NCBI GenBank assembly: GCA_963832165.1
Contig: CAWHTE010000003.1
Location: 512,001-576,000, forward strand
Direction of reading: 5' to 3'
DNA: 64,000 nt
Source: an uncultured delta proteobacterium
GTDB taxonomy: Bacteria > Myxococcota_A > UBA9160 > SMWR01
In this document: positions 27,756 through 29,258 of the stretch, in pieces
Layout of the letters: every line of letters starts with the position of its first letter
How positions within the stretch are numbered: the first letter of the stretch is position 1
Translations under genes and position numbers: made by a program
Notes under the pieces: model-generated
Told to the model about the DNA's origin: nothing
Seen by the model: only the letters and a program-made list of their open reading frames with translations
Databases searched by the model: none

Positions 27756-29258
27756 ATGCACGCAAACTTCCGGATCGTGCCCATGGCGCTCGTGCTCTCG
27801 CTCGCCTGGGCGAGTGGCGCGGCGCGAGCGCAGTCTCGCACCGAGAAGGATCTGCTCGGCGAAAAGCAGGTCCCGGCCGACGCCTACTACGGCGTGCAGA
27901 CCGCGCGTGCAATCGAGAACTTCCCGATCTCGGGCGTCTCGATCGGCCACTATCCCGAGTTCGTCGACGCGCTCGTGCTCGTGAAGCTCGCCGCGGCGCG
28001 CGCGAATGCCGAGGCCGGCGCGCTCTCCAAGGAGAAGCTCGCGGCGATCGAGAAGGCCGGGCGCGCGATCCTCGATGGGCGCTACCGCGATCAGTTCGCG
28101 GTCGACTGGTACCAGGGCGGAGCCGGCACCTCGGCCAACATGAACGCCAACGAGGTGATGGCGAACGTCGCGCTCGAGTTCATGGATCGTCCCAAGGGCG
28201 ACTACGAGACGATCGATCCGCACGACGACCTGAACGGCGGCCAGTCGACCAACGACGTCTTCCCCACCGCGCTCAAGGTCGCCTTCGCGATGCGCAACGA
28301 CCGGCTCGTGAAGCGACGTCGAGGAGCTGGCGCGGGGCGTTTCGCGCCAAGGGCGCGGAATTCCTGCGCACGGTGAAGATGGGCCGAACCGAGCTGCAGG
28401 ACGCCGTGCCGATGACCGTCGGGCAGGAGATGCACGCGTTCGCGGCCACGCTCGAGGACGGAGATCGGCGCAGCTGCGCGAGGCCGAGCAGCGCGCTCTA
28501 TCCGATCAACATGGGCGGCACGGCGATCGGCACGGGTCTGAATGCACCGCGCGGCTTCGCGAAGGACACCGCGAAACATCTCGCAAAGCTGACCAGGAAA
28601 GCCGTTCACGCGCGCCGACGGATCTCATCGCGGCGACCTCGAGCCTGCACGGCTTCGTCGTCTATGCGGACGCGCTGCGCAGCCTCGCGGCCACGCTCTC
28701 GAAGGTCGCGGGCGATCTGATCCTGCTTTCGTCGGGCCCGCGCGCGGGCCTCTCCGAGCTCGAGCTCCCGCCGCTCCAGCCTGGCTCCTCGATCATGCCC
28801 GGCAAGGTGAACCCGGTGATGCCCGAGCTGCTTAAGCTCGTATCGATGCGCGTCGTCGGCGAATTCGCTCGCGGTCGAGCTCGCGGCGCGCGAAGGGCAG
28901 CTCCAGCTCAACGCCTACGAGCCGCTCGTGGGCGTCGCCGTGCTCGAGTCGCAGATGCTGCTCTCGAACACGCTCGACGCCGTCCGCACGCGCTGCGTCG
29001 ACGGGCATCGGCGTGAATCAGCGCACGCTCGACCGCCACCTGGCCGAGACGGTCGGCATCGTGACGGCGCTCAACCCCGTCATCGGCTATGACCGCGCGA
29101 GCGAGCTCGCGCGCGAGGCCTATGAAACGAATCGCGGGATCCTGGAGATCGTGCGCGAGCGAAAACTCCTCACCGAGGAGCAGATCGCCGAGGTCCTCGA
29201 TCCCGAGAAGCTCACGAATCTCGATCCGAAGTCGTATCCGGCGCCGAAGAAGCGGTGA
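27756..29258 (+). CDS. aspA: Aspartate ammonia-lyase with N-terminal signal peptide; many indels between about 28310 and 29010
   Basis: [104 protein letters not shown] across successive frames. Confidence 0.88.

Follow-up and report, generated by a model that had tools for sequence, protein, structure and literature searches.

A predicted exported aspartase encoded next to a periplasmic asparaginase, and the cross-phylum clade to which it belongs

The window analysed here is a 64,000-nucleotide stretch of DNA from an uncultured delta proteobacterium (GTDB lineage Myxococcota_A; UBA9160; SMWR01), namely positions 512,001 to 576,000 of contig CAWHTE010000003.1 in the assembly GCA_963832165.1, and all coordinates are given within it. 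It contains a gene coding for an aspartate ammonia-lyase (aspartase)-like protein with a signal-like N-terminal extension, located between the genes for a Dcu-family carrier and the periplasmic L-asparaginase AnsB. The gene comprises the following features:

27746..27750, + strand: Shine-Dalgarno sequence GAGGA, read directly, with a 5-nt spacer to the ATG at 27756
27756..27830, + strand: predicted Sec/signal peptidase I (SPI) signal peptide of 25 codons, with the n-region MHANFR, a 13-residue h-region and the c-region SGAARA
27831..29258, + strand: mature aspartase-like enzyme (Lyase_1 and FumaraseC_C), with the stop codon at 29256-29258, readable only across three frames
28313..29006, + strand: indel-rich zone with at least four net frame changes

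Judging from sequence comparison, the protein is probably an aspartase of a distinct clade spread over several phyla, whose members are predicted to be exported through the Sec/SPI pathway, or as lipoproteins in a few cases, and to act outside the cytoplasm.

The extension has a single Arg in its short n-region, a stretch of 13 uncharged residues and Ala at positions -3 and -1, thus presenting the anatomy of a Sec/SPI signal (a positive n-region, an h-region some 10-15 residues long and free of charges, small residues at -3 and -1), and its cleavage is predicted between ARA and QS, before Gln26. There is no Tat signal in this copy, where the extension contains only that one Arg, and an RR-like motif was seen in just 5 of 199 relatives; nor is there a lipoprotein signal, the extension lacking Cys. 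Other in-frame start codons occur only at codons 8 (GTG, 27777), 10 (ATG, 27783) and 13 (GTG, 27792), in each case within the hydrophobic core, and none is found between the core and the motif R-x-E-x-D-L-L-G. In E. coli AspA only the residues MSNNI stand ahead of the corresponding R-I-E-E-D-L-L-G, and the close homolog P0003 aligns to the solved aspartases 6wng, 1jsw and 1j3u from its residues 19-23 onwards, so the extension has no counterpart in solved aspartases. The first-pass annotation of this DNA had described a GAGGA ribosome-binding site and an ATG at 27756 opening a basic n-region, a hydrophobic core and an A-R-A site, a mature start in line with ordinary aspartase N-termini (RxExDLLG), the absence of an in-frame start between the two, and a position of the whole segment upstream of the indel-rich zone; all of this was borne out, with codon 13 as the last start, the E. 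coli comparison in agreement and the first frame change at about 28313-28334.

The signal peptide was judged by a hydrophobicity and charge heuristic with positive and negative controls, not by a trained predictor, and the hydrophobicity score was the best 10-residue Kyte-Doolittle mean of the N-terminus. The window protein scores 2.56, and the orthologous extensions (n = 75) have a median of 2.73 and a minimum of 1.84, compared to a median of 2.9 and a minimum of 2.36 for the signal peptides of the adjacent AnsB proteins (positive control, n = 66) and a median of -0.38 and a maximum of 1.13 for the N-termini of classical AspA and FumC proteins (negative control, n = 113). The extensions are therefore fully separated from the 113 classical N-termini, none of which has the architecture of basic n-region, core and small residues, and match the neighbouring AnsB signals in hydrophobicity.

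A search with the N-terminal 185 residues, limited to longer proteins, scored 8000 candidates, 7407 of them at E ≤ 0.001. The best 120 of the 7407 matches are 64-89% identical and mostly 491-530 aa long, against about 470 aa for classical aspartases. All but two possess the extension, which starts with basic residues and continues through a hydrophobic stretch to a junction of the A/S/G-Q type before R-x-E-x-D-L-L-G; the genes of the remaining two, P0052 and P0111, seem to have been called too short. In 195 of the 199 relatives there is a run of 10 or more uncharged residues, and Lys or Arg precedes it in 186. A small-residue site just before the aspartase core accompanies the basic n-region and the run in clade members (195/199), and in 149/199 an A/S/G-Q junction is situated 1-5 residues ahead of the folded core. 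The extension is thus kept in kind, not in sequence, across the orthologs. Among Bacteroidota members, 58 out of 62 have Gln directly after a small residue no more than 5 residues from the core, in agreement with the Q-rule of Bacteroidota for SPI substrates, as described in the available text of PMC5837995 and PMC10653852. A lipobox-like Cys was detected in 14/199 relatives, about eight of which also have a linker of 25-40 residues rich in Pro, Ala, Ser and Thr, and the combination of lipobox and linker would be a second, independent route to a location outside the cytoplasm. Lipoprotein-style variants with a long low-complexity linker before RTEKDLLG include L036, L037, P0038, P0040, P0044, P0058 and P0106, as well as P0064 and P0119.

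Scanning one genome per species yielded 80 loci from Bacteroidota, Acidobacteriota, Pseudomonadota, Ignavibacteriota and Myxococcota-like metagenome-assembled genomes (MAGs). The carriers include Flavobacterium, Chitinophagaceae, Cytophagales, Adhaeribacter, Chryseolinea, Thermoanaerobaculia and other Acidobacteriota, Steroidobacteraceae, Halioglobus, Ignavibacteria and the Myxococcota-like MAGs. The extension is found in 79 of the 80 loci, the other one (L042) being cut off by a contig end. In all 76 loci with a gene classed as intact by the filter, an ATG, a basic n-region and a hydrophobic core precede the motif, and the extension is also present in L027, L029 and L103, which contain stop codons downstream. 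In the AT-rich Flavobacterium loci a stop precedes the ATG by a few codons and the core has no alternative start ahead of it, and no conserved internal start near the core was detected.

Phylogenetic trees were built with the extension removed, leaving out sequences without the motif or with a core outside 430-500 residues. In the FastTree phylogeny (109 rows) all 40 rows flagged as signal-bearing fall into one group with support 100, together with L069, L057 and P0111, which were mislabelled by the threshold or come from a truncated gene call: the signals of L069 and L057 are visible by eye and at a hydrophobicity threshold of 1.8, and were missed at 2.0. A quick IQ-TREE search on a random sample of 68 rows (28 with and 40 without a signal, P0111 excluded) placed the signal-bearing rows on one side of a single branch with an SH-aLRT value of 99, which corresponds to a single change of state; as the trees are unrooted, they do not polarise gain versus loss of the signal. 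The checks proposed in the first-pass annotation, that homologs should retain the extension and that signal-bearing aspartases should form a clade, thus came out in favour of its suggestion of an exported aspartase, which is further supported by the Q-rule agreement, the lipobox variants and the envelope-related neighbours described below.

The signal-bearing clade is compact. A search of 1.84 billion representatives clustered at 50% identity gave 16,564 matches at E ≤ 0.001, and only P0122 (64% identical) among the best 150 of them has the extension, the others being classical or carrying unrelated N-terminal domains. Identity is roughly at least 55% within the clade and 45-49% to classical AspA. 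The same representatives include aspartase-like proteins with extra parts: P0121 (1420 aa) contains two aspartase-like stretches, and several of P0124, P0125, P0126, P0128, P0132, P0133 and P0148 (598-709 aa) have N-terminal domains of 100-210 residues before the core. Two Flavobacterium genomes harbor both forms on the same chromosome, a classical AspA (MEPTRKEHDFLG, 725 bits with NF008909) and a signal-bearing paralog (657 bits), the pairs being L055/L113 with L109 in G041 and L058/L114 with L108 in G045; such genomes offer a natural system for localisation work. Three other Bacteroidota genomes have the signal-bearing form only, plus a FumC-like gene. Among 40 relatives of the genome under study, an ortholog was found only in a member of the same family (G013, locus L008, 68% identical), and it has a signal-like N-terminus as well.

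The assignment to the aspartases relies on several comparisons. Pfam searches with the four frame pieces of the window gene gave Lyase_1 matches of 95.3, 60.2 and 20.4 bits, the last of which is below the 27-bit cut-off, and a FumaraseC_C match of 83.3 bits, in the domain order Lyase_1 followed by FumaraseC_C. The window copy being frameshifted, the scores with aspartase models were taken from its close homologs, four of which (P0003, P0001, P0016 and P0075) pass the subfamily model NF008909 with 625-656 bits versus a cut-off of 510, with fumarase models scoring much lower on close homologs (435-444 bits). The best solved relatives of the clade are aspartases: phmmer matched E. coli AspA (1jsw) and AspB of Bacillus sp. 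YM55-1 (1j3u, 3r6v) over the whole mature length with E-values of 1e-129 and 1e-124, and matches of this kind are enough to establish the fold. The SS loop GSSxMPxKxN with the catalytic Ser was read in the window, its clade consensus being derived from 190 sequences, and an alignment of 190 clade members with 17 classical enzymes demonstrated the conservation of QGGAGTSxNMNxNEV, QSTND, GRTxxQDAVPMTxGQEF and the SS loop. According to the available text of PMC11744663, the catalytic residue of AspB is Ser318, and its carboxylate pocket is made up of Thr187, Met321, Lys324 and Asn326. The motifs of the AspB pocket (Thr101, Ser140-Thr141-Asn142, Thr187-His188, Met321, Lys324, Asn326) are kept in the clade except at the position of His188, which is occupied by Glu. 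Aspartate is therefore likely to be the substrate of the clade, although its specificity or pH profile may be altered. The enzyme shares its fold family, the SS loop, QSTND and GGAGTSxNMN with the cytoplasmic AspA and AspB, and is unlike them in having a 25-residue signal peptide and in belonging to a separate clade.

The genes on either side of the aspartase gene are transcribed in the same direction:

26452..27747, + strand: Dcu-family C4-dicarboxylate transporter of 431 aa, with a probable TTG start at 26452 behind GAGGAGG
29286..30350, + strand: type II (periplasmic) L-asparaginase AnsB, preceded by the ribosome-binding site AGGAGG (Pfam Asparaginase and Asparaginase_C; TIGR00520, 440 bits)

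The transporter matches Pfam DcuA_DcuB with 412 bits and the NCBIfam models NF006927 and NF009136 with 480 and 465 bits, respectively, and is 40% identical to E. coli DcuA; its TGA stop codon (27745-27747) overlaps the ribosome-binding site of the aspartase gene. AnsB has a signal peptide of its own, MSRIVRSLSIAFALSCVASAAAA (29286-29354). The order is dcu, aspA, ansB with gaps of 8 and 27 nt, so the three genes probably constitute a single operon. The flanks of the 80 loci, up to 5 kb long and in part truncated where a contig ends, were compared by tblastn (E ≤ 1e-10, at least 150 aligned residues): 70 loci have ansB next to the aspartase gene, 33 have a Dcu carrier there and 28 have both. In 12 loci, where 49 of the 96 listed ORFs were scanned with Pfam, the neighbours besides AnsB were assigned to the anion-selective porin family Porin_O_P (seven), DcaP-like outer-membrane proteins (four), divalent anion symporters of the DASS family (two), Asp-Al_Ex (one) and DcuA_DcuB (one). 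Genes for DcaP-like and OprO/P-like porins lie beside the aspA-ansB pair in Bacteroidota loci and at one locus of a gammaproteobacterium: the ORFs concerned are L055 3728-4951, L047 7589-8818, L056 7559-8770 and L062 3576-4799, the Porin_O_P ORFs belong to L086, L047, L056, L072, L041, L050 and L033, the DASS carriers are in L062 and L050, and the Asp-Al_Ex carrier is in L028. With AnsB, porins and dicarboxylate carriers as neighbours, the conserved partners are, by family assignment, extracytoplasmic or envelope proteins for small anions.

The same three gene families are known from another context. In Actinobacillus succinogenes the cluster ansB-aspA-dcuA (Asuc_0140-0142) serves a route in which DcuA imports aspartate for deamination in the cytoplasm, and in E. 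coli aspA and dcuA form an operon with the same pairing of aspartase and Dcu carrier, as reported in the available text of PMC10634366. The window shares with the A. succinogenes cluster the side-by-side arrangement of asparaginase II, aspartase and Dcu carrier and the overall conversion of asparagine via aspartate to fumarate and two NH4+, but its aspartase carries an export signal, which argues for the opposite topology to that of a cytoplasmic aspartase acting after aspartate uptake: aspartate would be deaminated before transport, leaving fumarate for the carrier to take up. Many clade members also differ from the known route by replacing or supplementing Dcu with DASS or AAE carriers and by adding anion or dicarboxylate porins.

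In the proposed mechanism, porins would let asparagine and aspartate into the periplasm, where AnsB would hydrolyse asparagine to aspartate and NH4+ and the exported aspartase would split aspartate into fumarate and NH4+. Fumarate would then be imported by the Dcu carrier, or in other lineages by a carrier of the DASS or AAE type supplied through DcaP-like or OprO/P-like porins of the outer membrane, and ammonium would enter separately. AnsB is a cofactor-free homotetramer which is exported by Sec and assembled in the periplasm. The aspartase, free of organic cofactor, would fold and tetramerise after Sec export in the same manner; the two proteins are encoded by adjoining genes and have signal peptides of the same length and hydrophobicity class, although AnsB is an amidohydrolase unrelated in fold and chemistry to the lyase. 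With somewhat less assurance than the export of the enzyme itself, we favour the view that these parts would make up a complete periplasmic route for asparagine and aspartate, in which anion-selective porins let the amino acids in, AnsB and the exported aspartase strip off both nitrogens and only fumarate and ammonium cross the inner membrane, that the route would be widespread in soil and aquatic Bacteroidota, Acidobacteriota and some Proteobacteria, and that the clade-specific Glu may be a periplasmic adaptation.

Aspartase and the whole aspartase/fumarase superfamily are treated as cytoplasmic. No description of an exported aspartase was found in the literature searched, outside of which lay most subscription journals and supplementary proteome tables, in line with the first-pass annotation, which knew of no characterised example. 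Phrase searches aimed at an aspartase that is exported or secreted hit nothing but "periplasmic asparaginase" and an unrelated yeast paper, neither "signal peptide" nor "periplasm" occurs in the 2026 study of fumarase evolution and targeting (PMC13655608), and PMC3543383 and PMC9386147 both concern cytoplasmic enzymes in the parts of their text that are available. If the proposal is true, this would be, within that literature, the first enzyme of the superfamily shown to be extracytoplasmic. Metabolic models and annotation pipelines take aspartase to be cytoplasmic, and so do transporter assignments, for example that of DcuA as an aspartate importer. With a periplasmic enzyme, asparagine and aspartate would be deaminated before uptake in many environmental bacteria, among them cultivable Flavobacterium, Chryseolinea and Adhaeribacter, the molecule transported by the linked carriers would change, ammonium would be released where neighbouring cells could use it, and models of amino-acid nitrogen turnover in soil and water would have to change as well. 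The idea is testable in cultured strains, some of which have both classical and exported paralogs.

Several observations weigh against the proposal or its application to this gene. One is the state of the copy in the window, which cannot be translated in one frame as it stands. Its frame changes are located at about 28313-28334, 28602-28622, 28846 and 28987-29006. In a tblastn comparison with P0003, the segment 27756-28313 is 84% identical, 28334-29005 is matched in another frame with out-of-frame stretches inside and long identical runs, and 29004-29255 is 89% identical; the plot of GC content at third codon positions (GC3) passes through phases 1, 0, 2, 0 and 1, shifting near 28333, 28602-28622, 28846 and 28987. 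Related in-frame contigs lack single bases at 28461/28463, 28490, 28601/28604, 28620 and 29002/29006, with at least 22 further indel rows; these contigs, from soil and wetland metagenomes, are only 85-95% alike and so come from relatives and not from this organism itself. The sites 28461, 28620 and 29002 represent an extra base in a GG or GGG run after "gac". No sequencing run contained more than 0.07 of the sampled words, and there was no RNA run among those listed. The indels extend beyond the aspartase gene, since the gene for a fatty-acid cis/trans isomerase (CTI; 24077-26441) is also split, near 25975, with Pfam CTI positions 2-533 and 527-692 in two frames. The closest copy in a named genome (L029 5001-6470, 75% identical, from a MAG labelled delta proteobacterium) has 19 stops in 490 codons and is probably frameshifted in its assembly too. 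GC3 phase jumps without gaps were seen elsewhere in the window, among others at 40066-42151, 14473/14474, 18104/18105, 37218/37219 and 52661/52662, some of which may be overlapping gene ends and others more frameshifts.

These frame changes could mean that the family is real and this particular copy is a pseudogene, inactivated by several frameshifts, with its signal peptide a relic. Besides the indels themselves and the related contigs without them, such a reading fits the absence of an ortholog in six congeners (completeness 66-99%) searched with this query, where the best matches are FumC-like and 41-51% identical, as expected of a dispensable or vanishing gene; that absence also makes the distribution of the module patchy. 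We consider a pseudogene the less likely explanation, if a serious one. The frame changes are most likely consensus errors of the assembly, because the in-frame pieces match P0003 no less closely than the intact N-terminal part does, with no additional amino-acid divergence, because three sites are extra bases in G runs, and because the CTI neighbour is split, L029 has its 19 stops and this genome, in only 11 contigs, reaches a completeness of only 89%, which is typical of indel-prone assemblies. The flanking dcuA and ansB are both intact. The aspartase gene is thus probably intact in life and miscalled in the assembly.

The remaining points concern the enzyme and its N-terminus. The same four homologs that pass NF008909 fall below the TIGR00839 equivalog cut-off (552-606 versus 681.2 bits), and the position of E. 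coli Q191, the equivalent of AspB His188, is Glu in 99% of the clade, accompanied by R299I in 98% and by N135H, H137D and V138L (E. coli numbering), all of which distinguishes the clade from AspA and AspB. The available text of PMC11744663 describes His188 and Asn142 of AspB as contacting the product amine, and a Glu at 191 could mean a different substrate or pH profile. An exported enzyme whose substrate in vivo is a different amino or hydroxy dicarboxylate, or which works chiefly in the direction of amination, is nevertheless improbable in our view: the remaining pocket and the catalytic motifs (QSTND, GGAGTS) are of the aspartase and not of the fumarase type, the partner encoded almost constantly nearby is an asparaginase, which yields aspartate, and an ammonium group would still be compatible with a carboxylate at position 191. 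Cysteine depletion was considered as a mark of export and rejected, the Cys count being weakly lower in the clade (median 3 versus 5 in classical enzymes) with no bias towards even numbers. It is still less probable that the hydrophobic N-terminus is an uncleaved anchor that keeps the enzyme tethered to the inner membrane, on its outer face. A few homologs are clearly tethered, through the lipobox Cys and long linkers, but the h-region here is short, small residues occupy -3 and -1, the A/S/G-Q junctions and the Q-rule pattern point to cleaved SPI substrates, and an uncleaved helix with no linker would press the N-terminus of the tetramer directly against the membrane. A mis-called start, with translation beginning downstream and the hydrophobic stretch never made, is hardly credible. 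The frame does remain open a long way upstream in this high-GC genome (ORF 27138..28376) and an open frame is by itself no proof here, but there is no start after codon 13, the ribosome-binding site lies 5 nt ahead of the ATG at 27756, and the n-h-c architecture follows the first ATG in 79/80 loci, including AT-rich genomes with a stop just upstream, with no internal start conserved. Export of an aspartase by Sec/SPI remains the reading preferred here.

Two further observations relate to the surroundings of the operon. Directly downstream of ansB and on the same strand (30322-32496) are the genes for a phosphate acetyl/butyryl transferase and an acetate kinase. Upstream, at 21883-24084, a single frame of 734 aa joins MgtC, DUF4010 and polyphosphate kinase 2 (PPK2) in an unusual-looking fusion, which could be two genes run together by an assembly indel.

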